Origin: Thermoanaerobaculia bacterium
GTDB lineage: Bacteria; Acidobacteriota; Thermoanaerobaculia; UBA5066
Length of the DNA: 46,698 nt
Assembly (NCBI GenBank): GCA_963816185.1
Contig: CAWFJJ010000012.1
Coordinates: 1 to 46,698 of the forward strand
Reading direction: 5' to 3'
This document shows, in pieces, positions 1,905 through 46,698 of the stretch. How positions within the stretch are numbered: the first letter of the stretch is position 1; each line of letters opens with the position of its first letter. Position numbers and translations under genes: made by a program. The notes beneath the pieces were generated by a model that was not told the DNA's origin, made no database searches, and saw only the letters and a list, made by a program, of their open reading frames with translations.

Positions 1905-1963
1905 TGTAGGGGCGCAACGGGAATTGCTGGGGGTTCTGTGGCGCGAAGAGACTAAGGTCACGC
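1905..1963 (+). repeat. Solo left end of IS481/IS3-like element (R30 repeat plus leader)
   Basis: TGTAGGGGCGCAACGGGAATTGCTGGGGG followed by the conserved leader TGTGGCGCGAAGAGAC..GTCACGC. Confidence 0.85.
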
Positions 1964-2254
1964 TCCTCGACGCCCTCCAAGCCGAGGCCGCGTACGAGAG
2001 CAAGTTCAAGAAGCTGCCGTTCGGCCTGGGGGAAAAAACTGCTTCCCCCGCCAACGATCGAGATCACTGAAGCGCGCTGGCAAAGTCTGCGCGCCCGGAT
2101 CTCCGGGTTCTTCCCGGTCGTGAAGTTCGGTGGATCATGAGGCCAGTCCTCACCAGGATCGCATCCGACTGCCGAAACGTGCGCCGGTGAAGGAGGAAGG
2201 CGTCCCCTTGGTGGTTCCGCGGCTCAGTCTCGATGGAGACAGCCTCACGGTCGG
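1964..2254 (+). pseudogene. 5'-truncated copy of the hypothetical gene at 26481-26753 plus downstream DNA
   Basis: Aligns with 26578-26867 (LQAEAAYESK.KKLPFGLG). Confidence 0.75.
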
Positions 2255-2746
2255 AGACTTCGTCTTCACGACCCAGTAAGTCTTCCTGGCCAAGACGGCC
2301 GACGATGCGGTCGCACGGACGTTCGGCGTTGTCGAAGCAGCGGCAGCAGCAGCCCACCGCAGCAGATCTCCTCCCAACAGCTTCTAGCTCGGCCTCTCAA
2401 GACGCTTCTCGCCATGGCGGATCCACGCACGCGGTTCGAGCGACGGTCGCGGAGGCAGATTTTGTCTGATCCAAGTGAACAGCAGAAGCCAAAAACTGGC
2501 ATCGCAGGGCGCTAGACGAGGTTTTTGCCGTGGTCCGCAGTTTGCGTGTGACCGGCACCGGTCCGCCAGGGTCTATGCCTAATCGCTAGGAGGCCGCTTG
2601 AAGTTCGCTGTTTCGCTGCGCGCTGTTCTGCTCGCGGGAACCTCCGCTGGGCGCGGGCCCGCGTCCGCTCTCCGGCATCCACGAAGATGCGACTTGCTCC
2701 ACATCAACCGGGATGGGCGCTCGCTGAGTCCTGATGGCGGTGGAAA

Positions 2747-2971
2747 GTGAGTAAGGCCTACGCTTGTCCTGCCTGCCGTGATTCAGGGTTCCGTTTCGTC
2801 GCAGTCCACGATCCGGCCAGCGCCAACGTCAATTCAACAGGGTATGTGTTTCGCTGGCAACCATGCAACGCTAACCCCTGCCTCGCTCCCGATGACGAAG
2901 ACACACTTTCTCTCCGGAGTAAGAATGAGCCGAGGACTGCTGCGAGACGACTGGAATCAAGCGGCGGCTAG
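2747..2971 (+). CDS. Small Cys-rich hypothetical protein
   Basis: CPACRDSGF...C...C pattern only. Confidence 0.35.
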   Translation: MSKAYACPACRDSGFRFVAVHDPASANVNSTGYVFRWQPCNANPCLAPDDEDTLSLRSKNEPRTAARRLESSGG

Positions 2972-3347
2972 GGGTGCGGCGGACGGCATCCTAAGCCGGC
3001 ACACCCCGGTGTACTTCGTGTCGGTGGCGCGTTAACGGAACGGCGCGAGTTGTCCGGTGCTAAGCCGAAGTACCCGGACGCGGCACGAGGTCAGCCTGTC
3101 GATCGCCAGCGCACCGTCTGTAGGGTCGCGGAGCATCTTAGGAATACCGATGCGGCCGTTCCGTGCGGTGCGCCGACGGAGCACGGACCTGGTCCGGCAA
3201 TCAGCAGGGCCGCCCACCTCTCGAGGCGGGTTCCTTATCGTGTGCGTTGATAATGGAGGCCTGCCACTCGGATGGGATCGGCCACAACCGAGAAAGGGGA
3301 AGAGAGGAAAGCCGAGGAAGTGGTTCTGTGGGCTGGGTCTCACACCC

Positions 3348-4457
3348 ATGGGAACCAACGTACCGCATATGAGCTCAGAGGGCAGTCCGATACCGGTACG
3401 CGGTCTCGACCAAGACGCCGCTGAGGTCGCGCTGGGGCCGGATCCCGGTGTGACGGAGACGGAGAAGGTCGCGTCGTTGTTCGCCGAGATACTTGGGCTA
3501 GAGCGGGTTGGAGGCGGGGACGATTTCTTCGACCTCGGGGGGACCTCGATGGACGCAGAGGAGGCGATCAATCGCCTGTCGGAGATCTTCGGCCGGCAGC
3601 TCGAAACGGCGGAGTTCTTGCGGACCCCGACGCCTGCCGCCCTCGCCCTACGGATGACGGGACCGCCTCTGCAGGCGGCCGACCCGCTCGTCCCTCTCCG
3701 GCGGGGCCTCGGCCTGCCCGTTTTCCTCTTCCCCGCTCCCAACACAGGAAGCCTCGTCCGCCTCGCTCACTGGAGGCTCGTACATCGGGTGGTAGAGGAC
3801 CGCCCGTTTCTCGCGTTCGACCCGTGCGAGAGCGCCCTGCTCCCGACGTCCGACCTCGCGGAGGTGGCGCTGCGGACGCTTCGGACGGCCCAGCCCCGAG
3901 GACCGTACGCCCTCGTGGGGGAGTGTGCTGCCGGCATCCTCGCCTGGGAGATTGCGCGCCGGCTCTCAGAGGAGCAAGAGCGTGTCGATCTTCTCGCTCT
4001 GATCGACTCCCCTTGGCGGCCTTATTGGGGGCGGCGGCCGAGAGGCCCGTTCCGTTGGAATCCGGCTCGGTGGCGCGGCGACCTCGTCCATCGAGTCGGA
4101 CGTCACCTCCACACGTTGCGCGGCCTCTCCGTGGAGAAATGGCCGGTGTACTTGTGGGAGAAAGGCGTCGCCGCCCGAGCGACATGGCGGAGGGTCCGCA
4201 GCCCCGAGATCGCGGAGCGGCGACACCGCCGGGAGCGATACGCCGAGGCCCTCGGCGCTATACCTCCCAGACCATGGCCGGGTCGTCTTCGTTTCGTCCA
4301 GAGCGCCGATCCGCTGCACCGGCACGACGCCGAGGGTTGGGCGACACTGGCTGAATCGTTTGAGGTCGTCCGTGTCCCGGTCGAGCACAGAGTGTTGCTC
4401 GGCGGCCACGTGGAGCTCGTGGCGGCGACTCTGTCAGGCTGGCTCCGCCAGACCTGA
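3348..4457 (+). CDS. Stand-alone carrier protein (PP-binding) + thioesterase didomain
   Basis: DDFFDLGGTS phosphopantetheine site. AQPRGPYALVGECAAG..LALIDS..EH thioesterase fold. Start uncertain (3348 or 3369). Confidence 0.8.
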   Translation: MGTNVPHMSSEGSPIPVRGLDQDAAEVALGPDPGVTETEKVASLFAEILGLERVGGGDDFFDLGGTSMDAEEAINRLSEIFGRQLETAEFLRTPTPAALALRMTGPPLQAADPLVPLRRGLGLPVFLFPAPNTGSLVRLAHWRLVHRVVEDRPFLAFDPCESALLPTSDLAEVALRTLRTAQPRGPYALVGECAAGILAWEIARRLSEEQERVDLLALIDSPWRPYWGRRPRGPFRWNPARWRGDLVHRVGRHLHTLRGLSVEKWPVYLWEKGVAARATWRRVRSPEIAERRHRRERYAEALGAIPPRPWPGRLRFVQSADPLHRHDAEGWATLAESFEVVRVPVEHRVLLGGHVELVAATLSGWLRQT

Positions 4458-4485: not shown

Positions 4486-4675
4486 TGTAGTGGCGCAATG
4501 GGCGTGGCTGCGACCGAATTTGGCCGGCTTCGCGAGATTCGCTGGAATGTAGGGGTGCAATGGGAATTGCCGGGGGCTGTAGGGGCGCAATGGGAATTGC
4601 CGGGGGCATATAGCGCATGAAACCCTTGCCATTCTGCCGACTTCTCGTCTCCGCCGAAGCATTTTGATCCCGGCA
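4486..4675 (+). repeat. Degenerate R30 (4486) plus R30 doublet (4548, 4578) and variant leader
   Basis: Two copies at an exact 30-bp period. The leader GCGCATGAAA..TTTTGATCCCG is shared with 23178. Confidence 0.9.
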
Positions 4676-4676
4676 G

Positions 4677-5458
4677 GCCCTGCTCCTCAGGATGACGCGT
4701 GAGGCTGCCGAAATCCTCGGGGCGCCATGGGACAAGGTCCCCGAACGCCAGCGCCCGCAATACGTGCCCGAGCAGCGCTTTCGGATCCTGCACATTCGGA
4801 GTTTCCTCGGGCTCTCGCAGCGCGAGACAGCTGAGATGTTTCGAGTGTCGGTCGAGACGATCGCACGGTGGGAGATGGAGACAACGAGCGCGGACGGCGA
4901 GGCCCCACGTCCCCTGGTTGCGCCGAATCCTCCCGTCCGGCGCTTCGCCGACGTGGTCAGGGCCGTCGTGAAGACGATGGAGCTGGCTGGCTTCGGAGGA
5001 AATGACCTAATCGCACGAACGCTGGCCCGTGCGGGCTGGAAGCTGTCGGCGAGGACTGTGGGGCGGATCCGAAAGGGGGGTTGGCCAGCGCCCCGTGTGC
5101 GGGAGAAGGCCTCGACGGTTCCGCGAGCCGTTAAGGCAAAGCGCCCGAATCACGTCTGGATGGTGGATCTGACCGACGTGAAGGAGCTCTTCGGGATCGT
5201 GACGTTCAAAATCGCGGTCGTGTTCGATGCGTTCTCGCGGATGCCGCTCTCGGCCAGGGTGTTTTCCAAGGAGGCCTCTGTCCTTGAGATCGCCCGGTTC
5301 GTCGCGAAAGCCGCGCCCTTCATGCGCTCTTTCCGGTCAACGGCAGGCGGCAGTTCTTCGGCCCTGTCCGCCCTCCTGCGCGCCTCACACCTTTTCGGCC
5401 TTGCCCTCGGCTCGGCGCTCGGTCGGCTCCGGGAATCGGGGGCGACGGCTGCGGCGCG
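4677..5458 (+). pseudogene. Scrambled DDE (rve-like) transposase fragments of the R30 element
   Basis: HTH LGLSQRETAEMFRVSVETIARWE and RPNHVWMVDLT..FDAFSR up to ~5315, then a restart of the N-terminus (ATG 5322, LLRASHLFGLALGSALG). Homologous to 45705-46698. Confidence 0.85.
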
Positions 5459-6955: not shown

Positions 6956-7112
6956 TGTAGGGGCGCAATGGGAATTGCCGGGGGTCTTGTGGCGCGTAGA
7001 GACGAGGGTCACCCCACCGGTACCTTCATCAAACCCGCCCCGAGGACGGGCATTCTGGTCCGGACCGGGCCCTTCATGCACTCTTCTCGGCCGCTGCGAG
7101 GCGGCAGTCCCG
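6956..7112 (+). repeat. R30 left end plus full leader plus first codons of the transposase (ATG 7076)
   Basis: TGTAGGGGCGCAATGGGAATTGCCGGGG..GACGGGCATTCTGG..TTCATGCACTCT. Confidence 0.9.
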
Positions 7113-7201
7113 GCCATTCTGTCGGAGGCCGTTCGCTCGACCTGGTAGCTCTTCCCGTGCTCCTGAGCGCGGGAAACGCTGGTCTCCGAGCGCCAGGACG
7201 T

Positions 7202-7228
7202 GCCGCAATTCCCATCGCGGCCCCAATA
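7202..7228 (-). repeat. Degenerate inverted R30
   Basis: GCCGCAATTCCCATCGCGGCCCC. Confidence 0.6.
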
Positions 7229-7402: not shown

Positions 7403-7696
7403 ATGAAAGTTCGTCCCCTCTACGACCGGATTCTCGTCAAGCGCATCGAGCAGGAAGAGCAAAAGCGCGGCGGGATCATCATCCCCGACACCGCCAAGGA
7501 GAAGCCGATGGAGGCCAAGGTCGAGGCCGTCGGCGAAGGCAAATTCGACGACAACGGCAAGCGGATCCCGCTCGACGTCAAGAAGGGCGACCGAATCCTG
7601 ATCGGCAAGTACGCCGGCACCGAGATCAAGATCGAAGACGACGAGTACCTCATCCTCCGTGAGGACGAAGTGCTCGCGATCGTCGAGACGAAGTAA
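7403..7696 (+). CDS. groES: Co-chaperonin GroES
   Basis: [42 protein letters not shown]. Confidence 0.98.
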
Positions 7697-9352
<1,656 letters not shown>

Positions 9353-9444: not shown

Positions 9445-9534
9445 TGTAGTGGTGCAATGGGAATTGCGGGGGGCCGTGGCGCGTAGTGACCAGGGCCACG
9501 CCCCGGCATCTTCCTCGATTCCGGCCCGCGGACG
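9445..9534 (+). repeat. R30 solo left end plus leader
   Basis: TGTAGTGGTGCAATGGGAATTGCGGGGGGCCGTGGCGCGTAG. Confidence 0.85.
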
Positions 9535-9989
9535 TCGCGTCGACGCGCTGGACGCGACGCCAGAAGACCCTGCGCCTGCTGCGGGCCTAAGTCCTGACGG
9601 CCCTAAGAGCCCGCACCCCTCGAGCGTAAGCCTGCCGACGTAGCCGTATCCCTCGGGGCTCAGTATCAAGACCTGGTCTCCGCTGGCGGTCTCCAGGAGG
9701 ATCGCCGCATCCCTCGACGGGTCGTAGCGTTCCACTGGCCGTTGTTACCAGCATCGCGGAGCCCGGATGAGGCTCGAGCCGAGCGGCAATCTCCGCCACA
9801 GTCTCGTAGCGTGCCTCGTCGTCACCCGTCCGAATGAGGCAGCCGCGACCGGCGATCTCGAAGGCTCGTCGGGCGTCGTCGATGGTATCGGCGATGTTCA
9901 CGGGCGGGGTCTGGCAGATTGCCTCCGGCGCCGCTGCGAATCTGGCAAGGGGCCTCTGCCCTACCGCGAAGGATGGAGGCCGTCTGGGT

Positions 9990-14206: not shown

Positions 14207-14502
14207 TGTAGGGGCGCAATGGGAATTGCCGGGGGCTTCGACGCGTAGAAACCGGGGCCGTAGACGGGCATTCTGGCCGGACGGGAGCCTTTCATGCGCT
14301 CTTTCCAGCCGCCGCGAAGTGGCATTTCTAGCCGTGCCGTCCCAGGCGCGACGGCGCTTTCCGCCCTGCTTCGCGCCTCGCACCTCTTCGGCCTCGCCCT
14401 CGGCTCGGCGCTCGGGAAGCTGCGCGACTCAGGTGTGACGGCGGCCAGGATGTTCGAAAGGGCCGAAGAGAGTGCCCTCCTCCTCAGGATGATGCGCGAG
14501 GC
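14207..14502 (+). mobile_element. R30 left end plus transposase N-terminal fragment (ATG 14294), cut by the next left end
   Basis: LLRASHLFGLALGSALG..LLRMMREA followed directly by TGTAG at 14503. Confidence 0.85.
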
Positions 14503-14565
14503 TGTAGGGGTGCAATGGGAATTGCCGGGGGGCTAAAGGCCGGGGCCGCACACGGGAGCTTCATC
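14503..14565 (+). repeat. R30 solo left end
   Basis: TGTAGGGGTGCAATGGGAATTGCCGGGGGG. Confidence 0.9.
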
Positions 14566-15312: not shown

Positions 15313-15450
15313 TGCAGGGCGGCAATGGGAATTGCCGGGGGCTGTAGGGGTGCAATGGGAATTGCCGGGGCTGTCGAGCGTAGAGACCAGACTCACGCCC
15401 CCCGTTTCCCTCTCAACCCCGGCCCGAAGGCGGGCATTCTGTCCGGACAG
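15313..15450 (+). repeat. R30 doublet (15313, 15343) plus leader
   Basis: Exact 30-bp period. Confidence 0.9.
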
Positions 15451-15489
15451 CGGTCTAGGTTCGAGTAATCGACCCTTTTCCTGAAGGAT

Positions 15490-15589
15490 CCCCGAGTGGA
15501 TGGCTCAAAGCGCGGTGGTCAGGGACTACCGGGTTCTCGAGGTCGGGCGGCGTCGGTCGAACCGTCTCATTCTAACTGTCGCGGGATGA
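15490..15589 (+). repeat. Second dispersed repeat family (~100 bp), copy 1 of 4
   Basis: CCCGAGTGGATGGCTCAAAGCGCGGTGGTC..GCGGGATGA. Other copies at 18633-18686, 23537-23636 and 24160-24260. Confidence 0.75.
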
Positions 15590-15661
15590 AGAGATTTCCT
15601 CGGCGGACGGGGCCCACGAGGTTCGAGATAAGCTTCAAGTAAGAAGACGGAACAGATCGAG

Positions 15662-18237: not shown

Positions 18238-18334
18238 TGTAGGGGTGCAATGGGAAATTGCCGGGGTTGTGGTGCGCAGAGAAAAGGGCCACGGCCATCC
18301 GCCAGATGGCGGTTTTGGTTCGAGAAACCGAGCC
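18238..18334 (+). repeat. R30 left end 2 bp after the kinase stop
   Basis: TGA-CC-TGTAGGGGTGCAATGGGAAATTGCCGGGG. Confidence 0.85.
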
Positions 18335-18445
18335 TGTTCACCGGCACACTGGCCCGATTGCCGCTCGGGGGTACGGCCCCCCGGGAGCCTCCGCCTCCAG
18401 TTCCACGGGAACCCCCCCGCGTCGGAGGAAGTCTTCGATAAAGTA

Positions 18446-19856: not shown

Positions 19857-19905
19857 TGCAGGGGTGCAATGGGAATTGCGGGGCGCTACGGCGCGTAGAA
19901 GCCAG
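19857..19905 (+). repeat. R30 solo left end
   Basis: TGCAGGGGTGCAATGGGAATTGCGGGG..GGCGCGTAGAA. Confidence 0.85.
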
Positions 19906-26406: not shown

Positions 26407-26480
26407 TTGATATCGTTAGGCGAACCACCCGGAGTTGACGGCGACGCCGGCAACCAGATCGGAGCGAAGGGAACACCCCT

Positions 26481-28165: not shown

Positions 28166-28168
28166 GCT

Positions 28169-29519: not shown

Positions 29520-30817
29520 GGACTCACCTGCTGTGTCGGAAGCGCGTGTGCCGTCGGGTCCGTCAGGCAGACCCTGACCTTGTTGGAGGGCTCATCGAAA
29601 TCCACTTCCTCGACGAGGGCCCGCATGAGCCGGCCCCTGTTCTGTGGAGTCAGGACGTCCCAGACCGAGTCGAGGTCGGCGAGACAACGCCCGGCCCACG
29701 TGGTGTTGGCCTTCTTCATGCCAGCTCCCTCCTTCGCGACCTCCCGGAGCCGGTCGATCACGTAGGTCTCGATGGCGTCAGCCGGGAGAGGGGGCGACGG
29801 GCAGGCCTGGCTCCCCTGCTTGTCGCGCTTGAGGCAGCGGTAGTAGCGATAGACGGTGCGACCCCTCCGGCTGGAGGCGGGCGTGAAAGCAGAGCCACAG
29901 CACGCGCAGCGGAGGAGCCCCCGCAGAATGTAGTTCGGATTGCGGGACGGATCGTTCATGGTCCTTGCCGCCCCGTCGAGAAGAGATCGCGCGGCGGAAA
30001 ACGTCTCGCGATCGACGATGGCCTCGTGCTCGCCGTCGTACAGCTCACCGTGACTTCTGATGTAGCCCGCGTAGATGGGCGTTCTGATCAGGCGAAGGAC
30101 GTCGGCGTTCGTCCACGGGCGGGTCGCCTGCGCGGCACCGTTATCTTCTGTTGAGGAAAGACGACGCTCGTTCAGGATCCGGGCTACTGCCAGAGCCGAC
30201 CGCTGCTCAAGGTAGAGGGCGAAAATCTCGCGCACGAGGACGGCCTCGGTCTCGGCTATAAGGAGTCGTTTGTCCTTGACCGTGTACCCGAGCGGGATGG
30301 GGCCACCCGTCCACTTCCCTTTCCGGCGTGCGGCGGCGATCTTGTCCCGGGTCCTCTCGCCGATCATCTCTCTCTCGAACTCGGCGAAGGACATGAGCAT
30401 GTTGAGGGTGAGACGCCCCATGGCGTCGGCGCTGGAGAAGTTCTGGGTCACGGAGACGAAGGAAGCTCCGGCTCGTCCGAAGCGCTCCATCAGCTTCGCG
30501 AAGTCGAGGAGCGAGCGGCTTAAGCGGTCGACCTTGTAGACGACCACGACGTCGATCTTCTTTGCATCGATGTCGGTCAAGAGTCTCTGAAATGCCGGCC
30601 TTTCGATGTTCGCACCGGTGAATCCGCCGTCGTCGTAGCGGTCGGCGAGGAGGCTCCAGCCGGGCTGCTTCTTTATGTATGCCGCGCAGGCCTCTCTCTG
30701 GGCGTCTAAGGAGTTGAAGTCCTGCTCGAGACCGACCGAGGTCGACTTGCGGGTGTAGATGGCACAGCGGCGGCTCTCGGGAGCTGATTCCGGAACCGAT
30801 TTCCGCTTGGTCTTCAT
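29516..30817 (-). CDS. Large serine recombinase (resolvase + recombinase + Zn ribbon)
   Basis: AIYTRKST catalytic Ser, ERPAFQRL, VYKVDRLSRS, PLGY and CACCG..YYRC. Confidence 0.93.
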   Translation of the reverse strand: MKTKRKSVPESAPESRRCAIYTRKSTSVGLEQDFNSLDAQREACAAYIKKQPGWSLLADRYDDGGFTGANIERPAFQRLLTDIDAKKIDVVVVYKVDRLSRSLLDFAKLMERFGRAGASFVSVTQNFSSADAMGRLTLNMLMSFAEFEREMIGERTRDKIAAARRKGKWTGGPIPLGYTVKDKRLLIAETEAVLVREIFALYLEQRSALAVARILNERRLSSTEDNGAAQATRPWTNADVLRLIRTPIYAGYIRSHGELYDGEHEAIVDRETFSAARSLLDGAARTMNDPSRNPNYILRGLLRCACCGSAFTPASSRRGRTVYRYYRCLKRDKQGSQACPSPPLPADAIETYVIDRLREVAKEGAGMKKANTTWAGRCLADLDSVWDVLTPQNRGRLMRALVEEVDFDEPSNKVRVCLTDPTAHALPTQQVSP

Positions 30818-31359
30818 CGTCCCTGCGCTCCAGCCTTAGTGCCGTTCGCGCGACCGAAGAAGAAGAGATAGCCGTTCCAGGGGGTGCCTGTGATTACGCG
30901 TGCGATCTTCGAGAGGGAGCGGTACTTCTCGCCGCGGTACTCGAAGCCTTCGTCGAGGATGGTCACGCTGTGCTCGGTCTTGCCGTGGATGCGCCGGACG
31001 ACGGTCCCGGCGGGCGGGAGTCGCGGGTCACGTGCGGCTTCCGTTGATCGGCGTATCGGCGAAGCGGAGGTCCCCACGCGTACCGGGCGACGCGCAGCCG
31101 CGAGACCTGCCGAGCCGAGCTCCTCGATGCGGGCGAGGGCCCGCTCCGAAAGGCCTCCTTCGGACAGTTCCTGGATGCGCCATGCGAGCCGCTTCCTGAG
31201 AAAGTGTTTATTCCGGGAGCTGGCCGGTTGCCCGAACAGAACGAGGTACTTCTCCGCCATCTCGGCGCCCGTCATCTCGCCGAGAGCCGCAAGCTCGGTC
31301 GCGGTGCGCAGCACGGCCGCATCGTCGACGTTTCGTACCGCGTTCGACGCCTTATTCAC
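30814..31359 (-). CDS. DUF2924 domain protein
   Basis: LRKRLAWRIQE..GGLS, RDPRLPPAGT and YRSLSKIARVITGTPWNG..FF. SD GGAGG. Confidence 0.88.
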   Translation of the reverse strand: MNKASNAVRNVDDAAVLRTATELAALGEMTGAEMAEKYLVLFGQPASSRNKHFLRKRLAWRIQELSEGGLSERALARIEELGSAGLAAARRPVRVGTSASPIRRSTEAARDPRLPPAGTVVRRIHGKTEHSVTILDEGFEYRGEKYRSLSKIARVITGTPWNGYLFFFGRANGTKAGAQGR

Positions 31360-32142
31360 GCTTTCCCTCCTTTTCCGCGGCCTTAAGGCGCCGCAAGCAA
31401 GGGACATGGACGCTCTCTCTGGTGAACAAGGCAAGGTAAACCAGAGGGCGACCCAACCGGTCAGAGTGGCCCGAAAGGCCCGCCAATACGGTCGACGGCG
31501 CGCTTTTCTCGCGCGACGTTGGCCCACATCGCGGCGTCTCGGGAGAGGCGAGTAAATAACCCTGGGTCATTTATGAACCGCAGCGTTGGCGCGAGAAAGG
31601 GCACTCCGGGGCAGGCTCGATCGACTGGATTAAGTGTCCATTAGTCAGTCGCTTCGCCAGGTCGTGATCGGATTCGCCGAGGTCGTTTTCAACCGCGCAT
31701 GCGCTCGAAAATGACCCCCCTGAGGTGGGTTCTTTACTCGCTACCTGGGGTCCCTGAAAACCGCGTCAACCAGTCTCTGGCGCTCTCGACAAGAACCGCC
31801 CTGAGAGAGCGGCTCGCGGGGCCTGAAGGGGGCCGTCCGGAAGTCTCGGTGCTCTCAGTTCGACCCGTCACAGGATCGACAAGGAGTCACCTCTTCCTTT
31901 TTAGGGCGTGCGCTGGGTTCGGGTCAACCGCGCCTGCTTTGCTTTCGCGGGGAAGTTGTATGGCTCCCCACTCGGTCGGCTAGGCGAACTGTTCTCAGGT
32001 CACAATCTGAGAACTTCAAATGCTCTCAGGACAAGATCCTCTTCGGATGGAAGCGGTTGCGGCGCACACGTCCGGTGACGCCGAATAGTGCCACCCCAGA
32101 TGAAATGGCGCGAGGCCTGCGCTCCCGAGTCCGCAAACCAGC

Positions 32143-32349: not shown

Positions 32350-33750
32350 TCACACGGGCTTCCCGAGGATCGCGGTTATCTTCCCAAGCAAGGATTTGAG
32401 GTTGAGGGGTTTCGGGAGGAAGTCGGCGGCGCCCATCTGGCCGGCGAAGAGCACCCGGTTCTTCTCCGGGAGACCAGACATGAACAGGACGGGAATCTGT
32501 GCCTGCTCGGGCCGCGACTTCAGGACCTGCACGGTGTCGAAGCCGTCGAGCCCCGGCATCGCGACGTCAATGAGGATGAGGTCGACCGTGAGCGTCTCGA
32601 GAAGGCTCAATGCATCCTCTCCCGACCCCGACGGCACGGACTCGAATCCACTTCGCTTCAGGTATGTGCAGACGAAGTTCCGCACCTGCTTCTCGTCGTC
32701 CACGACGAGCACGACGGGCCGGCGCCCGGGCGTCGTGGCCGCCGCGGTTACGACGCTCGTGTCGACGAGCCCGCCTCCATTGACTGCTCCTCCCGTTGCG
32801 GTTTCGGCTCTCGTGTCGACGCTCTCGGCTACTGCGACCGCTCGACTCCTCGGCAACTTTGGTAGCGCAATGGCCGCGGATGGAAGGATGGAGCTCCTTC
32901 GATGGACGGCCGTCTTCTTACGCGCCGCAACCGGAACCATCTTCATCGCTGCGTTCGGCCGCGGCGTCTGATGCCGCTCGAGCGCCGCGAGCGAGGCCAC
33001 CAAGGCGTCGGCCGCTAGAAACCTTTCCTCGGGGTTTTTCGCGAGACATCTCACGACAACGGCCGCCAGCGCGCGCGCGACGCCTTGCTCTTCGAGCGCG
33101 CCACGCGACAGGGGAGCCTCGAGATGCTTCCTTGCGACGGAGAAGAACGTGCGGCCCGTGAACAGCGCGTGCCCAGTCAGCAGCTCGAACGCGATGGCGC
33201 CGATGGCGTAGATGTCGCTTCGCTCGTCCCCGATTTGGCCGCACAGCTGCTCGGGAGACATGTACTGGGGCGTTCCTACGGCCGAACCGACACCCGTGAT
33301 CCTGGGGTCGGTGCGATTCGTGTCGTGAGCCAACCCAAAATCGAGAATGGAGACGTCGTCCGAGGGCCGGATCATCACGTTTGCGGGCTTGAGGTCACGG
33401 TGGACGATGCCGGCCGCGTGCGCAGCCGCGACGGCCCGCGTCAGCTGTGTAAGGATCCGGAGCGATCGGGGTGCAGGGATCGGACTCTCAAGCTCGATGA
33501 CGGTTCTCAGGTCCCGCCCTTCGACAAACTCCATCGTTAGGTACGACCAGTCGCCAGCAACGCCGTAGTTGTGGAGGCGGCAGACGTTCGGGTGGCTGAT
33601 CTTCCAGTTCAAGGTCACTTCGCTCTTGAAACGCTTGAGGGCGGTGTCCCCCTCAACGGGACTAGTCCGCGCGAGGACCTTGAGCGCGATCACCTCGTCC
33701 AGCTCGCGATCGGTTGCCTTGAATACGTAGCCCGCTCCGCCGTGGCCTAG
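32350..33750 (-). pseudogene. Ser/Thr kinase + C-terminal receiver domain, 3' part, interrupted by IS110
   Basis: GHGGAGYVFKA..ALK, HRDLKPAN, DFG and YMSPE; REC VVDDE..DVAMP..KP. Confidence 0.9.
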
Positions 33751-33843
33751 TAAAGATGGAACGACCGGCCCAATTCGCGAGGCCGTAGATTACGCCGCGA
33801 GTTGGAGTCGTAGCGCAGAGCTACACGCGAAAGGAGCCGGTCG

Positions 33844-34989
33844 ATGAAGAAGAATATCCGATACGTAGGGCTGGACGTGCACGCCGAGACGATCGCCGTG
33901 GCGGTGGCCGAGGCGGGCGGAGAGGTCCGATCGCTAGGGACGATTCCGAATCGGCTCAAGTCGGTGCGGAGGCTCGTCAAGAAGCTCGGACCGCCCGAGA
34001 GTCTTCGTGTCTGCTACGAGGCGGGGCCGACGGGATACGTGCTTTACTGGCAGCTGACCGAGCTGGGCGTGGCCTGTGAGGTCGTGGCTCCGAGCCTCGT
34101 GCCGACCAAGCCTGGCGATCGGGTGAAGACCGACCGAAGGGACGCCGAGAAGCTGGCCAGAAGCTACCGGAGCGGCGACCTGACCGCGGTCTGGGTACCG
34201 GATGCCGCGCACGAGGCGCTGCGAGACCTCGTTCGTGCCCGAGAAGCGGCCACCCAGGATCGCCTCAGAGCACAGCAGCGGCTCAAGAAGTTTCTGCTTC
34301 GGCGCGGCCAGCGCGCCCCCGAGGGAATCGGAAGTTGGACGCTGAAATACCACGAGTGGATGAGGGCGCACGTGCGGTTCGATCACCCAGCCCAGGATGC
34401 GACTTTCCTGGACTACGTCTGCGAGGTCGAGCATGCCGTCGAGCGCATTCAAAGACTGGAAAGGGCCATCGACCAGGCCGTGGAGGGTGTGCCGGAGCGG
34501 ATGCGCGCCGTCATCAACGCCCTGCAGTGCCTGCGAGGCGTGGCCAAGATCGCGGCCGTGACGATCGTGGCCGAGCTCGGCGAGCTGTCGCGCTTCGAAA
34601 GGCCCCGGCAGCTGATGGGCTACGGCGGCATCGTTCCGAGCGAGCATTCCACGGGCGGCAAGGCCCGGCGTGGCGCCATCACGAAGACAGGCAACGCCCA
34701 TCTCAGGAGGATCGTCGTGGAAGCGGCCTTCCCTTACCGCCACCGGCCGGCGATCGGTTTCGCGCTGCGGAAAAGGCAGGAGGGACAAAGCGAGGACGTC
34801 AAGGAGATCGCCTGGAAGGCCCAGCACCGCTTACACGGTCGCTACCGAAAGCTCCAGGCCAGAGGCAAGCCGCAGCAGCACGTGGTCACGGCCGTCGGCC
34901 GGGAGCTCCTGGGATTCATCTGGGCCATAGGGGTGAGAGTCGAGCAGGGATTTCAGACCAGGGCCCCCGGTCGTCGGGCCGTAGCGTAG
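33844..34989 (+). CDS. IS110 family DEDD recombinase/transposase
   Basis: GLDVH, CYEAGPTG, KTDRRDA, PSEHSTG and ITKTGN. Confidence 0.96.
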   Translation: MKKNIRYVGLDVHAETIAVAVAEAGGEVRSLGTIPNRLKSVRRLVKKLGPPESLRVCYEAGPTGYVLYWQLTELGVACEVVAPSLVPTKPGDRVKTDRRDAEKLARSYRSGDLTAVWVPDAAHEALRDLVRAREAATQDRLRAQQRLKKFLLRRGQRAPEGIGSWTLKYHEWMRAHVRFDHPAQDATFLDYVCEVEHAVERIQRLERAIDQAVEGVPERMRAVINALQCLRGVAKIAAVTIVAELGELSRFERPRQLMGYGGIVPSEHSTGGKARRGAITKTGNAHLRRIVVEAAFPYRHRPAIGFALRKRQEGQSEDVKEIAWKAQHRLHGRYRKLQARGKPQQHVVTAVGRELLGFIWAIGVRVEQGFQTRAPGRRAVA

Positions 34990-35270
34990 ACAAGACAAGA
35001 AAAGAAACGGAGATCAAACGAAATTGAGTCGAGCAGCCAGCGGCCGAGAGGCCCACGGAGGAGAATCCTCGAGCCCGCTATGCGACAGGGCTTCACGGCC
35101 CGGACCCGCGCCGCTAGTAAGAGGCAGCTCCCGACGAATCACTTTCATGAAGGCGGGCTCAGCCCGATCCTCGAATATCAGGGTGATCAACCGTCGAGAA
35201 CGCACCCTCGGTCGCTGACTGGTCGACTCCACGAAAGGAATTTCGAAGATTCCGAAAACTCGTCCCAACT
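34990..35270 (+). ncRNA. Putative bridge/seek RNA
   Basis: Long 3' non-coding region. GCCCGCTA (35073-35080) and CTAG (35114-35117) match the target; ATATCAG (35175-35181) matches the donor end. Boundaries approximate. Confidence 0.7.
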
Positions 35271-35291
35271 TGACCGGTCGTTCCATATCAG

Positions 35292-35375
35292 CGGGCCCAG
35301 GTATTCGTACCGCGGCAGCGACGCGAAGAAATTCGTGCGGAGGACGTCGAGGTTGGGATCGGGGCATTCGCCCAC
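35292..35375 (-). pseudogene. 5' part of the interrupted kinase
   Basis: MGECPDPNLDVLRTNFFASLPRYEYLGP joins in frame to LGHGGAGY. Confidence 0.85.
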
Positions 35376-35402
35376 GGTATTCCTTGCGATCCTACCCCGT
35401 CC

Positions 35403-36073
35403 CGTAGGGGTGCAATGGGAATTGCCGGGGGCTCTGGCGCGTACAGACCAAGGTTTCGCCCTCTGAATCCGGTCTCGAAAACGGGCATTCTGGCCGGACA
35501 GGAGCCCTTAATGCACTCTTCCCGACCGCCGCGAGGCGGCAGTTCTCCAGCGGCGCTGCCCGCCCTCCTGCGCACGGCTGCGCCTCACGCGAACGTCGGC
35601 TGTAGGATCAGACGCTCTCCCACTTCATTAGGAAGGAGTTCGGCACGAGGGCTACAACGCTGCGCGGTGGACGCTGAAGGACATGCTCGGGCTGCGCCTC
35701 CTGCGGCCGATCGTCGCGGAAGACCTCGCCGCGACGGTCGAAATGGGCCTCGTGCACTACGCCCATTTCCGCCCGCACCAGGGCCTCGGCGGGGCGACGC
35801 CAGCTGAGGTCTACTTCGGACGCGCTCCGTCGCACCTGTCAGCGATCCCGCCTCCTCGCGGCAGGCCGGGTGAAGGTCGGAAGGACTCGCCGTTTCGCAT
35901 CGACTACCTAGACGCGGAGCGGCTACTGCCAGTTCTGGTTCGAAAAGCAGCCTAAACGGGCGATTACCGGGGGCGAGCGCCGGTCGACGTGTGCGCGTAC
36001 GAAGGTGTCGCGACCGCCGAGACGCGGGTCTGTGCGCGCCAACGGCAGCCGCAATTCCCATTGCGCCCCTACA
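35403..36073 (+). mobile_element. Internally deleted R30 element with both ends
   Basis: Left end at 35403, transposase start at 35511, C-terminal fragment 35669-35955 (Y..RPHQGLGGATPAEVY..LVRKAA), right end ..CCCCTACA at 36073. Confidence 0.88.
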
Positions 36074-40262: not shown

Positions 40263-41615
40263 TGTGCCTCGCCAGAATCCCATAGGGTGTCCAAACGGGG
40301 GCGTACGTACTTCAGCCGATTGAGGTTCCTTCGCTCCCCGGGCCGGCCTGCTCTGGCTCGTATCCTCCCAGCATGCTCGGCTTGATTCGACTCTTCCTGG
40401 GGTCCCTCGTCGCCCTCCTTCGCCCTCAGGCCGCACTCGTGGCCGAGAACTTCGCGCTGAGGCATCAACTCGGCGTCCTCCTGCGGTCGAGGCCCGCCCG
40501 TCTTCCCCTTACTTCGTGGGATCGAGCCCTCTGGGCCTTCGCCCTTCAGCGCTTCCCCGGGTGGCGGCAGAGGCTGGTCATTGTCAGGCCCGAAACCGTC
40601 ATCGCGTGGCATCGTCAGGCGTTTCGACTCTTCTGGAGATGGAAGTCGCAGGCCGGGCGACCGAGAGCTCATGCCGAGGTCCGGAGGCTCATTCGGGAGA
40701 TGGCCTCAGACAACCCGACCTGGGGTGCGCCCCGAATCCACGGCGAGCTTCTTAAGGTCGGTTTCGACGTGAGCGAACGGACGGTCTCCCGATACCTCGA
40801 ACGGATCCGACCAGAACCTCGAAGGACCGGATCTCAGACCTGGAGCACCTTCCTGCGCAACCAGGCCAAGGGCATCGTCGCCGTCGACCTGTTCACTGTG
40901 CCCACGGTCAGATTTCAGGTTCTTTACGTCTTCGTTGTTCTGGCACTTGAACGCCGGCGTCTGGTCTTCGCGAACGTGACAACGAACCCAACTTCATTCT
41001 GGCTCGGCCAGCAGACGATCAATGCCTTCCCCTGGAAGACGGCGCCCAGATTCCTGATCAGAGATCGCGATAGGGCATATGGAAACGAGTTCTCCCGCCG
41101 AGTCCGGGATCTCGGCATCCGTTCCATCAAGACCGCTATTCGCGCCCCGAAGATGAACTGCTACGCCGAGCGCCTCATCGGTACGATCCGCCGCGAACTG
41201 TTCGACCACGTCATCGTGTCGAGTGAGCGTCACGCGAGGCGGCTGCTTCAGGAGTTCCAGGTCTGGTACAACGAGGACCGCCTTCATCTCGCTCTCGAGA
41301 AGGACGCTCCTGATCACAGGCCCATCGAGCCGCCCGAGATGGGCGAGGTCATCTCGCTACCTCGTCTCAGCGGTCTTCATCACCGGTACTCGCGGCGCAC
41401 AGCCTGAAGCCAGGGGCGTCTACGGCGGTACTCCGACGGCCCTGCCATGCCGTCCGACTAAACCTTGATCCAGACGGTCCGCTTCCTCTTCACGAAAACC
41501 ATGGAGAGCCGCCGGCCGCAGAGCCTTCAGTCGACATCGATAATGCAGGTTGCCAGCCTCCTCAAGGACGGTTCTGTTACATCCCGAGCCCCCGCTGCGA
41601 TTTTGGCGATCCACA
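40263..41615 (+). mobile_element. Second IS481/IS3-like element with TGT...ACA ends
   Basis: 17-bp imperfect inverted repeats TGTGCCTCGCCAGAATC (40263) / GATTTTGGCGATCCACA (41599-41615), 14/17 match. Confidence 0.7.
40373..41407 (+). CDS. Integrase-core (rve) DDE transposase
   Basis: NPTWGAPRIHGEL, AVDLF, IRDRD, N.YAER..GTIRRE, YN..R.H and GLHHRY. Confidence 0.93.
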   Translation: MLGLIRLFLGSLVALLRPQAALVAENFALRHQLGVLLRSRPARLPLTSWDRALWAFALQRFPGWRQRLVIVRPETVIAWHRQAFRLFWRWKSQAGRPRAHAEVRRLIREMASDNPTWGAPRIHGELLKVGFDVSERTVSRYLERIRPEPRRTGSQTWSTFLRNQAKGIVAVDLFTVPTVRFQVLYVFVVLALERRRLVFANVTTNPTSFWLGQQTINAFPWKTAPRFLIRDRDRAYGNEFSRRVRDLGIRSIKTAIRAPKMNCYAERLIGTIRRELFDHVIVSSERHARRLLQEFQVWYNEDRLHLALEKDAPDHRPIEPPEMGEVISLPRLSGLHHRYSRRTA

Positions 41616-44135: not shown

Positions 44136-44300
44136 TGTAGTGGCGCAATGGGAATTGCCGGGTCCTATAGGGGTGCAATGGGAATTGCCGGGGGCCTGTG
44201 GAGCGTGAAACCGGAGCCATTCTGTCTCTTTCTCGGTGCCGCCGAGGTGTCTTGAACCCGCCCGGTAGACGGGCATTCTGGCCCGGCGGGGCCTTTCATG
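44136..44300 (+). repeat. R30 doublet (44136, 44166) plus leader
   Basis: Exact 30-bp period. Leader ends CCTTTCATG. Confidence 0.9.
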
Positions 44301-44348
44301 TTTCTTCGTCGGCTAGAATGCCTCTCGATTTCGAAGAGGAGAACGAAC

Positions 44349-45050
44349 ATGAACGATCGTCTTCGGCACCGGCCCGCCGCCGTTGTTTTCGCGTGCCTAC
44401 TCGTCGCTGGTTGCCGCAAGGGTCCAGAAACGGCTGCCCCGGTGACGAGCAGTCCGGCGGTGAACTCTTCGGCGCCCGCACCGGCCCCCGTCGCGGCGTC
44501 CCCCGGAAACACTGAGGCTGGTCTCGGAGGAGCCGGGGCGGAGACCACGGCGAAGATGGCAGGCGCTGAATGGGCGCTCAAGCAGGACGCCATCAAGAAC
44601 GATCCCGACGGCCAGTGGGCCATCCAGGCCAAGGCATCCTCGTCCTATAACGATGCTCAAGGCGCCGCGGCATGGTCGGCCAATCAGGCCACTGGCGCAC
44701 CCAACGTAGAGAAGTACGGAGACGACGGGAGGGCCTGGGCACCGAAGACCCCAGATGGCGGCATCGAATGGTTGGAGCTGACATTCCCGAAACCGATCTT
44801 TGCCACTGAAGCGCGAATCCGCGAATCCTGTGGATCGGGCGCCGTCATCAGGGTGGAACTCTTCGACGAAAAGGGCACGCCTCACGTGGTCTGGGCAGGC
44901 AACGACCCGACCAAGGACCTGAACTACCTCCTCCTTAAGTTCGCGAAGACGACCTACAAGACTGACCGCATCAAGGTCACGCTCGCGACAAACGTCGTGC
45001 CTGGCTGGAACGAAATCGACGCCGTACAACTCGTCGGCAAGGAGAATTGA
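44349..45050 (+). CDS. Lipoprotein with discoidin/F5-8-like domain
   Basis: Lipobox VAGC. QWA..A.ASS.Y, AW.P..EWLEL.F and WNEIDAVQL.G. SD GAGGAG. Confidence 0.8.
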   Translation: MNDRLRHRPAAVVFACLLVAGCRKGPETAAPVTSSPAVNSSAPAPAPVAASPGNTEAGLGGAGAETTAKMAGAEWALKQDAIKNDPDGQWAIQAKASSSYNDAQGAAAWSANQATGAPNVEKYGDDGRAWAPKTPDGGIEWLELTFPKPIFATEARIRESCGSGAVIRVELFDEKGTPHVVWAGNDPTKDLNYLLLKFAKTTYKTDRIKVTLATNVVPGWNEIDAVQLVGKEN

Positions 45051-45159
45051 TCCATTCGTCGTGCGCTCATAACGACGCGATTCGCGAGCTCCAGAATGGT
45101 CTGAACCTGCAGGCCCTGCTGCTATCATGAGCCGCATCGCGAGAAGGAGGGATCTGATC

Positions 45160-45663
45160 ATGACGCTTCCGAGACGGACGGTGTTTGTCTTCGAGTGTGC
45201 GATGGCCGTATTGATGGTGGCCGCGCCGGCCTCCGCTGCCCCAAGCACGTACTACAACCACGGCAAGCCTGTCGCACTGACGGATTCGTACGCGTGCACC
45301 GAAGACGACATCCTCAACGACGGCAAACTCATCACGGTGGTGGCGTTCTCGAACGGCCCGATGGACAAGGCCGCGCTCAAGGCGGCAGCCAATCCATGTC
45401 GTGAGCTGACCCACCAGGTCGGCAAGGGCTTCACCACGCTGGTCGAGCTGAAGATCAAGTACGACGGCACGCCCTACAACGTCCAGGTGTTCGACGCCGG
45501 CGGCACGCACTCGCGCACCGACGCGGCGAACCTCAAGCTGACGAAGAACGATGGCAAGCGCATCGAGGGCGCGTACGCGACAAGAAACGCATCGGCCGAA
45601 CGCTCGCCCAATACCGAGGCCTTCGACCTGACGTTCGCGCTCGGCGTGGAGCCGTCGAAATAG
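45160..45663 (+). CDS. Secreted hypothetical protein
   Basis: Signal peptide ..ASA-AP. SD AAGGAGG. TAG stop overlaps a TAGGGGC end remnant. Confidence 0.75.
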   Translation: MTLPRRTVFVFECAMAVLMVAAPASAAPSTYYNHGKPVALTDSYACTEDDILNDGKLITVVAFSNGPMDKAALKAAANPCRELTHQVGKGFTTLVELKIKYDGTPYNVQVFDAGGTHSRTDAANLKLTKNDGKRIEGAYATRNASAERSPNTEAFDLTFALGVEPSK

Positions 45664-46698
45664 GGGCCCCGTAGACGGGCATCCTGGCCGGACGGGAGCC
45701 TTTCATGCATACCTCTCGGCCGCCCCGGGGTGCCAGTCCTCCGGGGGCACTTCCCGCCCTCCTACGCGCCTCGCACCTCTTCGGCCTCGCCCTCGGATCG
45801 GCGCTCGGTAGGCTCCGCGACTCGGGCGCGACGGCGGCGAGGATGTTTGAAAAGGCCGAGGAGCAGACCCTGCTCCTAAGGATGACGCGCGAGGCTTCTG
45901 CGATCCTCGGGGCGCGCTGGGACAAAGTGCCCGAGCGCCATCGCCCGCATTACGTACCCGAACAGCGCTTCCGGATCCTGCGGATCCGGAGTTTCCTCGG
46001 CCTGTCGCAACGCGAGACGGCCGAGATGTTTCGAGTGTCGGTCGAGACGATCGCACGGTGGGAGGTGGAGGCGACGAACCGCGGACGGCGAGGACGCACG
46101 TCCCCTGGTCGCTCCGATTCCTCCTGTCCGGCGTTTCGCCGACGTGGTCAGAGCCGTGGTCAAGACGATGGAGCTCGCCGGGTTTGGAGGAAACGATCTG
46201 ATCGCACGGACGCTGGCGCGTGCAGGCTGGAAGCTGTCGTCACGGACGGTGGGACGGATCCGCAAGGAGCGGTGGCCATCTCCCCGCTTCCCGCGGTGGC
46301 TCGAGGAATCGGCGAGCCGTGCGGGCGCGGCACCCGAATCACGTCTGGATGGTGGATCTGACGGACGTGAAAGGGCTGTTCTCTCTCGTCACGTTCAAGA
46401 TCGCGGTGGCCTTCGACGTGTTCTCGCGCATGCCTCTTTCGACGCGGATTTTCTCTAAGGAGCCTTCGGCCGGCGATATGGCCAGCTTCGTCTCGAGAAC
46501 GGCGAAGCGGCACGGGCGCCCGGCGCATTTCGTTTCGGATCAAGGACCTTGCTTCACGGGCCACATCTTTCGCCGCGCGCTGCGGGCGCCTCGGGGTGAA
46601 GCCGAGGTTCGGAGCAATCGGGAAGAAGGGCTCGATCGCCTTGATCGAGAGGACTGTGGAGGACGCTGAAGGACGCTCTCGGCCTGCGCCTGCTGCGG
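45661..46698 (+). mobile_element. Longest copy of the R30 element: end remnant, leader and frameshifted transposase (ATG 45705) running off the window
   Basis: HTH, WMVDLT, VSDQG and IER.W.TLK (D, D, E) in shifting frames. 46661-46698 overlaps 35669-35706. Confidence 0.88.

Follow-up and report, generated by a model that had tools for sequence, protein, structure and literature searches.

The window analysed here is a stretch of 46,698 nucleotides that makes up contig C12 of a Thermoanaerobaculia genome, and it raises the question of whether a transposon family can collect genes at one chromosomal site. An earlier note described it as an array of transposon ends that mostly point the same way and partition unrelated genes, and proposed that a DDE transposase drives it as a gene-cassette array. 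The answer depends on what the repeats are, where in the genome they lie, and what the junctions between repeats and genes tell about the way they were formed.

The repeat and the insertion sequence behind it

The window was searched with the 30-mer at thresholds of at most three and at most six mismatches, with 100 shuffles as a control. The stricter threshold gave 19 matches (17 on the + strand and 2 on the − strand), and the shuffles gave 0; the looser threshold gave 25 (21 and 4). Upstream of the TGTAG boundary the sequence is unique to each copy, conservation in the window copies runs ~50-130 nt downstream, and the 30-mer is a true transposon terminus. Every + strand start in the earlier note was recovered, some in degenerate form (18238, 23273 and 23813 have 1-nt indels and 26302 has 6 mismatches), with an exception in kind at 45661, where there is no 30-mer and an IS body that has lost its 5' part begins instead. 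The ends that the note had placed on the − strand need another reading, since + oriented elements terminate with their right ends at 7228, 24463, 32172, 32267 and 36073, and 41667 alone is a left-type end that faces the other way.

The element is 1.44-1.52 kb long, has inverted repeats of ~50 bp that start with TGTAGGGG, and encodes a single HTH-plus-rve transposase of 413-427 aa; intact copies (1437-1520 bp) with the ends TGTAGGGG...CCCCTACA, i.e., TGT...ACA, were found in five genomes. The transposase scores 32.8 bits with Pfam rve (cut-off 32.6) and 28.5 with rve_3 (cut-off 26.5), a match at the level of domains. Its closest NCBIfam model is transpos_IS481, which is covered over positions 2-284 of 284 but with 95 bits against a cut-off of 224, and the next best is IS3 with 77 bits. 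Both the TGT/ACA inverted termini and the length of ~1-1.5 kb expected of the IS481 family are present. The repeats are the termini and debris (MITE-like deletion derivatives and solo ends) of one IS481-like, rve-type insertion sequence, as the earlier note had it, the label being set by the NCBIfam and Pfam models. At least 120 metagenomic protein clusters, most of 413 aa, are at least 72% identical to the transposase.

The pieces of the element in the window, other mobile genes and the cargo discussed below are as follows:

1905..1963, +: solo left-end stub fused to the interior of a small-ORF unit of the 26302 type; the upstream flank resembles element position ~300
3057..4457, +: cargo, PP-binding and thioesterase C-terminal fragment
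4486-4502, +: 17-nt terminus remnant abutting the 3' end of the PP-binding/thioesterase cargo
4548..5453, +: rearranged, truncated IS copy with outer 30-mer (4548-4577) and left end (4578-4648, model 1-70), then a fragment of the transposase (4674-5314, model 267-905) and, displaced, model 101-242 (5315-5453)
6956..7228, +: two-ended deletion derivative (MITE), 273 bp
7403..9352, +: cargo, second groES-groEL pair, 90% identical to the pair on C1 of the same genome and 92% to those of G007, G013 and G003
9445..9545, +: solo left-end stub of ~100 nt, next gene on the − strand
14207..14535, +: left end with the transposase gene's 5' portion (model 1-300), a second co-oriented left end cutting in at 14503
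15313..15593, +: outer 30-mer and left end (model 1-100), continuing as the 24014 MITE family (83% over 253 bp), without right end
from 15662: cargo, Ser/Thr kinase gene, after the preceding left end
18238..18360, +: solo left-end stub (model 1-98), followed by a gene for a universal stress protein (18769-19812)
19857..19916, +: solo left-end stub (model 1-59), followed by a 75-aa ORF and a TPR/GT41 gene
23148..24463, +: nest of pieces that share one orientation, with a 30-mer at 23148 and left ends at 23178, 23273 and 23813; 23218-23472 and 23758-24013 are 99.6% identical
23662-23752, +: internal fragment within this nest (model 1231-1322)
24014-24463, +: two-ended MITE, 450 bp, at the end of this nest
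24528..26306, +: cargo, GGDEF-EAL protein, closest paralog on C30 (88.7% nucleotide identity)
26302..26867, +: left stub (model 1-121) and 90-aa ORF (26481-26753), joined just after the conserved box
27494..27617, +: degenerate terminus, first 8 nt lost, then internal 3' fragment (model 1241-1330)
28122..28166, +: solo left-end stub (model 1-48), directly bordering the 3' end of an acyltransferase gene on the − strand
29516..31527, −: large serine recombinase and DUF2924, 82% nucleotide identity to the pair adjoining tRNA-Asn on C29
32131..32335, +: two fragments of right ends (32131-32172, 32176-32267), then one of the transposase (32267-32323)
ending at 32335, −: 11-nt terminus remnant following these fragments
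33746..35400, +: unrelated IS110-family element, transposase gene 33844-34989
35403..36073, +: two-ended internal-deletion derivative, 671 bp (model 2-172 plus 1029-1475)
40267..41600, +: unrelated rve_3 transposase element and starting point of the near-identical stretch shared with the end of C29
41615..41667, −: left-type end, the sole one in the opposite orientation
44136..46698, +: outer 30-mer (44136) and left stub (44166-44310, model 2-120), then cargo ORFs 44298-45050 and 45127-45663
45657-46698, +: IS body from the conserved box onward (model 61-1098), running off the contig

The three two-ended deletion derivatives of the window (273, 450 and 671 bp) have both termini and lack transposase and target duplication, and more of them occur in relatives. 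Across five genomes, direct repeats were seen by eye within 40 nt of flank in none of 14 two-ended copies. The target-site duplication of IS481 elements is given as 2-15 bp, mostly 6 bp (PMC10045372). The duplications may have been lost through recombination between copies, and in the IS1202 study repeat-less copies are put down to intra-replicon recombination (bioRxiv 2022.12.17.520857).

Tandem terminal 30-mers with a spacing of 28-31 nt account for 14 among 150 termini, at left and right ends alike; they are not a flanking direct repeat of the IS1202 kind. Left ends are also nested in older copies, four times in the window at model position 30 and twice at ~300. IS copies in one genome share just 77-88% identity and thus give no hint of recent IS activity, and insertion into older copies is read from old scars. 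Copies of one array differ from each other about as much as from the copies of other species, and no near-identical IS copies or units were found besides the overlap of C12 and C29.

A polarised array next to a tRNA gene

Among the nhmmer fragments of the window 13 have a left terminus and 4 a right one, in agreement with the claim that most are left ends; right ends standing alone and two-ended MITEs are present too. After overlapping matches had been resolved, the fragments proved to be co-oriented in the window (23/23), in C6 (7/7) and in the relatives G041 (16/17), G042 (10/10) and G043 (9/9), which upholds the claimed polarity. The array direction relative to an 847-bp landmark gene is the same in all four arrays that hold this gene; relative to tRNA-Asn it is the same in G043, and the 7 matches at 438.8-455.8 kb of C29 agree. 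Orientation is mixed at 456.8-460.6 kb of C29 (4 + vs 5 −) and in C2 (2 + vs 3 −).

The clustering is equally strong. With at most 5 mismatches, 43 of the 44 genome-wide 30-mer matches lie within 2.7% of the genome, all 52 nhmmer matches are on four contigs (C12, C29, C6 and C2), and the even spread of an ordinary REP or MITE was not found. An IS110-type element of the same genome, taken as a dispersed control, is spread over C24, C25 and C2. Scanning of relatives with a 23-mer placed 22/22 termini of G041 within 65 kb, 13/13 of G043 within 31 kb and 13/17 of G042 within 20 kb, and the same confinement and polarity were seen in four relatives having long contigs. All genomes compared are MAGs, and independent genomes are fewer than the handles imply because G041 is the same genome as G003 and G044 the same as G021. 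The confinement is not absolute, since two degenerate stubs that adjoin tRNA-Ala on C25 escaped nhmmer; solo stubs are found elsewhere in the genome in G042 and G044. The target choice of this IS family cannot be random.

The tRNA-Asn(GTT) gene at C29 424342-424416 closes a block conserved in 29/29 genus genomes, and synteny is lost immediately after it in all genomes compared. The locus varies among IS-free relatives as well; in one of them, G020, the landmark gene is 90 bp from tRNA-Asn. A large serine recombinase gene (C29 425603-426676) lies directly after the tRNA at the island edge. Thus defined, the locus is a tRNA-Asn-linked variable region of the genomic-island type, and the window most likely continues C29 into the hypervariable stretch 3' of tRNA-Asn, the placement of C12 and C2 with C29 depending on overlap and binning. 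The vicinity of a linear replicon end, which the earlier note had considered, did not hold up, because the array is inside the chromosome, at least 14 kb from tRNA-Asn on a 467 kb contig with no GC skew switch.

That C12 is a chimeric walk through the repeat or a contig from another organism is very hard to believe, although the source MAG of 30 contigs has 3.4% estimated contamination and is larger than its relatives, repeats are found at contig ends, and the last 1 kb of C12 departs from C29 after 5.4 kb of near-identity. The same architecture is present inside 0.7-1.1 Mb contigs of other genomes, and a single orientation is not expected from chimeric joins. The junctions at 14207, 15313, 19857, 24463 and 26302 are bridged by short-read contigs with 0-2 differences (four runs of one study, which may include the source sample and is thus not independent support).

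Cargo, junctions and the building of the array

The claim that the ends partition unrelated genes was confirmed: the cargo genes have unrelated functions and, by Pfam coverage, most are full length. The extra groESL is nearer to other species' copies than to the host copy, and the 847-bp array gene is 94-97% identical across species as compared to ~77% for flanking core genes. The cargo is a mosaic of paralogs and xenologs that includes genes from related species. It lies on both strands independently of stub direction.

The view that a left end and the cargo next to it form a mobile unit, moved by the transposase through one-ended or end-targeted reactions or circles, possibly with expression signals supplied by the stub, seems unlikely to us. 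It would account for the excess of left termini, for the absence of target duplications from every copy, for at least 5 different sequences that follow the same point just behind the conserved box, and for IS bodies that start at the box behind cargo at three loci. Weak support comes from ORF 44298-45050, which begins exactly at the position of the transposase ATG; from the stub and small-ORF unit, which occurs in four contexts in two genomes (the 26302 type also at C6 47190 and in G041, truncated at 1905 and at C25 236753); and from a single 2.1-kb gene between two co-oriented stubs beside tRNA-Ala on C25, which is located elsewhere in 5/5 relatives searched. However, the homology of this gene to relatives ends at the start and stop codons, which may merely reflect diverged intergenic DNA, the cargo-to-body junctions vary by ~20 nt, and the cargo-terminus junction of 3057..4457 is found in G041 at 95% identity inverted relative to the array polarity. 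Solo right ends and two-ended MITEs also speak against it, as does the lack of near-identical units outside the contig overlap. Stubs precede a co-oriented gene in 8/11 cases (manual tally) vs a + strand baseline of 65% (24/37 called genes), and the two stub regions examined contain no sigma-70 consensus promoter. No evidence for active mobilisation of end-plus-cargo units was found. The identity of the ends, their left bias, polarity, clustering and partitioning of cargo stand, whereas the active cassette system of the earlier note is made less likely by copies of 77-88% identity, by stubs that vary from 30 to 300 nt and by the two stub regions with no consensus promoter. A bolder version, which we regard as quite improbable, would make the left stub (terminal repeat plus conserved palindromic box closely preceding the transposase start) a functional adaptor behind which the transposase, or a host recombinase acting on the box, joins single genes, stacked one way beside tRNA genes, so that this acidobacterial genus would have an integron counterpart based on transposon ends that harvests genes of sister species.

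It is also possible, though again not probable, that the IS is inactive and that integrative elements stack in fixed orientation at tRNA-linked sites and bring IS remnants with them, the polarity being due to site-specific integration and decay. The array begins 3' of tRNA-Asn with the recombinase gene directly after the tRNA, a second recombinase/DUF2924 pair lies within the window, the site varies in IS-free genomes too, and the stubs 3' of tRNA-Ala share the geometry, pointing toward the tRNA. The mutual divergence of copies within one array and the cross-species identity of the 847-bp gene fit as well. But about one stub per 2 kb is far too dense for one per integrated element, the source genome yielded only two copies of the recombinase and the G041-G044 arrays none, and tandem 30-mers and ends nested in ends require events at the level of the IS.

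To the remaining explanation, in which an IS family trapped at one locus builds the array through insertion of its copies into one another, or recombination among them, within the tRNA-linked island, we give an even chance. In its favour are the identity of the element, its confinement and polarity, the tandem 30-mers and nested left ends, the lack of target duplications, the tRNA linkage and the mosaic cargo. The family is trapped in the hypervariable stretch 3' of tRNA-Asn(GTT), and new copies would land there non-randomly, by insertion into or recombination with resident copies of the same orientation. Deletions and exchanges between the direct repeats would then erase target duplications, remove right halves and leave left stubs, and would trap or import intervening DNA, genes of related species included. 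The outcome would be a polarised mosaic with slow turnover, closest to an IS26-type array and formed with no dedicated cassette reaction like that of integrons. Recombination alone leaves unexplained both the left excess (13 vs 4) and the pile-up of junctions just after the conserved box, the polarity fails at C29 456.8-460.6 kb and C2, and no event was caught in the act. The locus seems better described as a zone where genes gather slowly than as an established cassette machine of a new kind.

Insertion sequences usually scatter, and here one family is held at one tRNA-linked locus, in one direction, across several species of a soil genus about which little is known. If end-targeted insertion or exchange is true, IS26-like array building would extend to the large rve/IS481 group and to environmental chromosomes, and Acidobacteriota would have a concrete route for gathering gene copies of their relatives; examples of such extra copies would be the second groESL and the array's numerous kinases and regulators. 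If the array is mere decay in stacked islands, the locus would be a marker of a genus-wide integration hotspot and a caution for the binning and assembly of such regions.

Comparison with known systems

The array resembles an integron in being polarised, in holding mostly single unrelated genes with a short conserved repeat between them, and in occupying one chromosomal site. It differs in that the repeat is a transposon terminus and not an attC hairpin site, spacing is irregular and cargo is on both strands. No tyrosine recombinase domain was found among the 27 window ORFs scanned, which together with the nature of the repeats speaks against an integron. In ISEcp1 and ISCR systems, one element end and adjacent DNA move as a unit, which gives one-sided ends by the cargo; these elements belong to other transposase families and keep an intact transposase gene beside the cargo, whereas most units here have a stub only.

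Tandem accretion of integrative or Tn7-like elements at a fixed attachment site (for island building by Tn7-like elements see PMC11014353) shares with the array one conserved chromosomal site by a tRNA gene, remnants in a common orientation and the outward displacement of older material. Genes of the Tn7 type were not encountered here, the stubs are far denser than whole elements, and the gene at the tRNA encodes a serine recombinase and not a tyrosine integrase. The IS481/IS1202 likeness consists of a single DDE transposase of the rve type that carries an N-terminal HTH and is encoded without frameshift, TGT...ACA ends and a length of ~1.5 kb. The IS1202 study describes transposase signatures specific to the family, direct repeats of 5-6, 15-17 or 27-28 bp and one subgroup inserted in fixed orientation adjoining XerCD sites (bioRxiv 2022.12.17.520857), so on that account site- and orientation-specific members are known. 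In contrast, 0/14 copies here have the 2-15 bp repeats of IS481 or the 5-28 bp repeats of IS1202; the score of 95 bits vs 224 and the presence at one locus instead of dispersal set them apart from IS481.

The IS26 arrays (PMC7885326, PMC4894685) consist of directly oriented IS copies and unrelated cargo with no flanking duplications, a pattern attributed there to an incoming copy that targets a resident one. The transposase studied here is of the rve/IS481 and not the IS6-family type, the repeats are mostly left stubs of 30-300 nt and not whole IS, the array lies on the chromosome of an environmental acidobacterium, linked to a tRNA gene, and any translocatable unit of the IS26 kind would be putative here. 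The likeness to IS26 arrays lies in the 23/23 co-oriented fragments of the window, the 0/14 copies with duplications and the unrelated cargo between them.

The terminal repeat and the fragments of the element

The 30-nt terminal repeat of the IS481-like element is real, since it matches the window 19 times with no more than 3 mismatches and none of 100 shuffled sequences; allowing up to 6 mismatches raises the number of matches to 25, 21 on the plus and 4 on the minus strand. The sequence upstream of TGTAG is different at every copy while the 50-130 nt downstream are conserved, and thus TGTAG is the genuine terminus of the element. A REP or RAYT-type repeat was rejected because the sequence leads into a transposase gene and is paired with a right end that matches it in inverted form. 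The coordinates of transposon ends listed in the earlier note all hold, with some qualifications: 4486, 27494 and 32335 are short remnants of the terminus, 45661 marks where a 5'-truncated IS body begins and is not a 30-mer, and the minus-strand matches are mostly right ends of plus-oriented elements, 41667 being the only reversed left-type end in the window.

An apparently intact copy is present on contig C6 of the source genome (G000), and further ones are found in related genomes. Intact copies are 1437-1520 bp long, with one ORF and inverted repeats of ~50 bp. The 427-aa transposase carries rve and rve_3 domains and covers the IS481 model end to end, with a score of 95 bits against a cut-off of 224. 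Its relatives form at least 120 metagenomic protein clusters at ≥72% identity, mostly of 413 aa. The relatives are placed in the Acidobacteriota, class Thermoanaerobaculia. The rve_3 gene at 40373 was rejected as the cognate transposase because its element lacks a corresponding left end.

Every fragment in the window was mapped to an element profile built from three intact copies. Three fragments are two-ended deletion derivatives:

Two-ended deletion derivatives identified with the element profile
6956-7228, plus strand, two-ended deletion derivative
24014-24463, plus strand, two-ended deletion derivative
35403-36073, plus strand, two-ended deletion derivative

Many solo left ends (stubs) stop at profile positions 30 to 300, and the window also holds a few right ends, internal pieces and one body running off the contig. 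Once overlapping profile matches are resolved, all 23 fragments lie on the plus strand, 13 with the left terminus and 4 with the right one; element sequence occupies 11% of the span. The window has just one near-identical internal repeat, a 256-bp direct duplication (23218-23472 and 23758-24013, 99.6% identity) that contains a left stub. A 90-nt tRNA-Val called by ARAGORN inside an IS fragment (5431-5520) is probably a false call since Rfam does not report it at the gathering threshold; at Rfam gathering thresholds, neither the window nor four array loci gave matches to RNA families other than tRNAs.

Confinement, polarity and assembly of the array

Genome-wide, 43 of 44 matches to the 30-mer (≤5 mismatches) are located on C12 (the contig that constitutes the window), the last 29 kb of C29, C6 and C2, together 2.7% of the source genome. 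The element matches found by nhmmer, 52 of 52, are on these four contigs. An IS110-type element of the same genome, used as a control, is dispersed over C24, C25 and C2. The pattern is present in 14 of the 41 genomes searched, the source included, and all 14 belong to one genus. In relatives that have long contigs the termini are likewise clustered, in 65 kb of G041 (22/22), 31 kb of G043 (13/13), 20 kb of G042 (13/17) and a single contig of G044 (5/6); G041 and G044 proved identical to the genomes G003 and G021, respectively. The exceptions are solo stubs elsewhere in both G042 and G044, and two degenerate stubs on C25 of the source genome.

Orientation of element fragments in arrays outside the window
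Array of G041: 16 of 17 co-oriented
Array of G042: 10 of 10 co-oriented
Array of G043: 9 of 9 co-oriented
Array on C6: 7 of 7 co-oriented
End of C29: mixed, 4 plus and 5 minus
C2: mixed, 2 plus and 3 minus

The direction of the array is constant relative to an 847-bp landmark gene in all four arrays that hold it and, relative to tRNA-Asn, G043 agrees with C29 at 438.8-455.8 kb. The landmark, a PEP-mutase/isocitrate-lyase-like gene, is found in or beside every array examined (C6 79711-80557 in the source genome; the arrays of G041, G042 and G044; 1344-2190 of locus L047). Between species its identity is 94-97%, compared with ~77% for the core genes next to it.

The tRNA-Asn(GTT) gene (C29 424342-424416) closes a block conserved in 29 of 29 genomes of the genus, and synteny ends directly past it in every genome compared, including those free of the IS; in one of the latter, G020, 90 bp separate the landmark gene from the tRNA. 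In the source genome the tRNA is followed by a truncated large serine recombinase gene, and the window holds a recombinase/DUF2924 pair paralogous to it. No clean empty site could be defined for the whole array, as the sequence flanking the G043 array on the right maps to inconsistent places in relatives. A location at the end of a replicon, raised in the earlier note, or at a terminus is unsupported: GC skew is weak and does not switch at the array.

Positions 40301-45682 of C12 are ~100% identical to the reverse complement of C29 461940-467352 in dovetail geometry, and therefore C12 most likely continues C29; when C12 is reversed, its polarity agrees with the remainder of the array. An inverted duplication was rejected: the dovetail overlap at ~100% identity is read as a single locus that was assembled two times. 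Over the final 1 kb of C12, inside an IS body, identity to C29 falls to ~86%. This drop, located at a conserved box, was not taken for recombination, since a contig that ends within a repeat may carry a mixed consensus. Shallow short-read contigs (depth ~3-5) from four runs of one study, which may include the source sample, bridge the junctions at 14207, 15313, 19857, 24463 and 26302 with 0-2 differences; stretches that they leave uncovered are uninformative. Joints of 27568/27602 to 32138/32144 in such contigs were discounted since any intact IS copy elsewhere would give them. Stronger support for the assembly is provided by the same array architecture within 0.7-1.1 Mb contigs of other genomes.

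Cargo genes and element junctions

The genes between the stubs, referred to here as cargo, are functionally unrelated to one another according to Pfam:

Cargo of the window assigned by Pfam
PP-binding/thioesterase fragment
AraC-type regulator
7403-9352, groES and groEL
methyltransferase
two Ser/Thr kinases
universal stress protein
TPR/GT41 protein
GGDEF-EAL protein
acyltransferase
serine recombinase
IS110 transposase
PD40 protein
DUF2252

Many of them have paralogs elsewhere in the source genome at 72-91% nucleotide identity, and few are shared between arrays of different species. The groESL genes at 7403-9352 are a second pair, 90% identical to the host copy, which lies at the very end of C1, and 92% identical to the copies of three other species. 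The pair is slightly closer to those species, each of which (as nearly all searched) has one full-length match, and this pattern favours import from a relative. The IS110-family element at 33746-35400 shares its first 366 bp with C1 433836-434201 (99.5% identity) and differs from the IS110-type transposase copies on C24, C25 and C2. A Ser/Thr kinase-TPR gene is present as three paralogous copies on array contigs (C2 3160-5544, C6 82852-85239 and C29 457577-459966).

A mini-array beyond the main locus (C25 236384-238977, locus L057) consists of one 2.1-kb peptidase gene between two degenerate co-oriented left stubs, at a distance of 294 nt 3' of tRNA-Ala(GGC). This gene is located elsewhere in 5 of 5 relatives searched and has no second copy in the source genome. 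Since its homology to relatives ends at the start and stop codons, the boundaries may merely reflect diverged intergenic DNA. In G020 and G011 the orthologous kinase-TPR gene adjoins this peptidase gene.

A conserved box that contains a 12-nt palindrome precedes the transposase ATG by 15-30 nt. Left stubs frequently terminate just past it, at least five different sequences continue from the point just after it, and IS bodies starting at it come after cargo at three loci. The box, which could be an internal binding site for the transposase or a regulator, is found at 44258-44300 and 45665-45705 and in other left stubs, and opens with a GTAG motif resembling the terminus. The ORF at 44298-45050 starts at the position of the transposase ATG. 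Together with the C25 mini-array, these observations hint that joining may take place at a specific point.

Possible origin of the array

Terminal 30-mers occur in tandem in 14 cases among 150 termini, with a spacing of 28-31 nt. They affect left as well as right ends, and two of them represent one locus present in C12 and C29. The longest run observed, three 30-mers, is at G043 C4 905857-905939. The left end at 14503 cuts an older copy at approximately profile position 300, and the one at 1905 probably does the same. Tandem and nested ends of this kind are read as traces of insertion into pre-existing copies. No direct repeats that could represent target duplications were found within the 40 nt of flank checked at 14 two-ended copies in five genomes. 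The earlier observation is confirmed and proves stronger than was claimed: several species have, at a conserved tRNA-linked site, the same confinement and polarity of copies without target duplications.

The integron-like reading of the array is less well supported. Against an active cassette system, IS copies within one genome are 77-88% identical, as divergent as between species, and stub lengths are variable. By our tally, 8 of 11 stubs are followed by a gene in the same orientation, compared with 24 plus-strand genes of 37 overall, and a scan restricted to sigma-70 consensus promoters found none in two stub regions, 14150-15700 and 26250-26520. The best-supported reading is an IS481-like family trapped at one locus, where its copies insert into one another or recombine. 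New copies would enter, or recombine with, resident copies of the same family, and deletion and exchange between direct repeats could then shape the mosaic of stubs and cargo.

We found no prior description of this IS481-like family or of the array pattern in the literature searched. IS481 members are reported to produce direct repeats of 2-15 bp (PMC10045372). Those of IS1202 members are reported as 5-6, 15-17 or 27-28 bp, copies without repeats being put down to intra-replicon recombination; the 14 two-ended copies described here have none. Among the systems found in this search, the IS26 array is the closest parallel.
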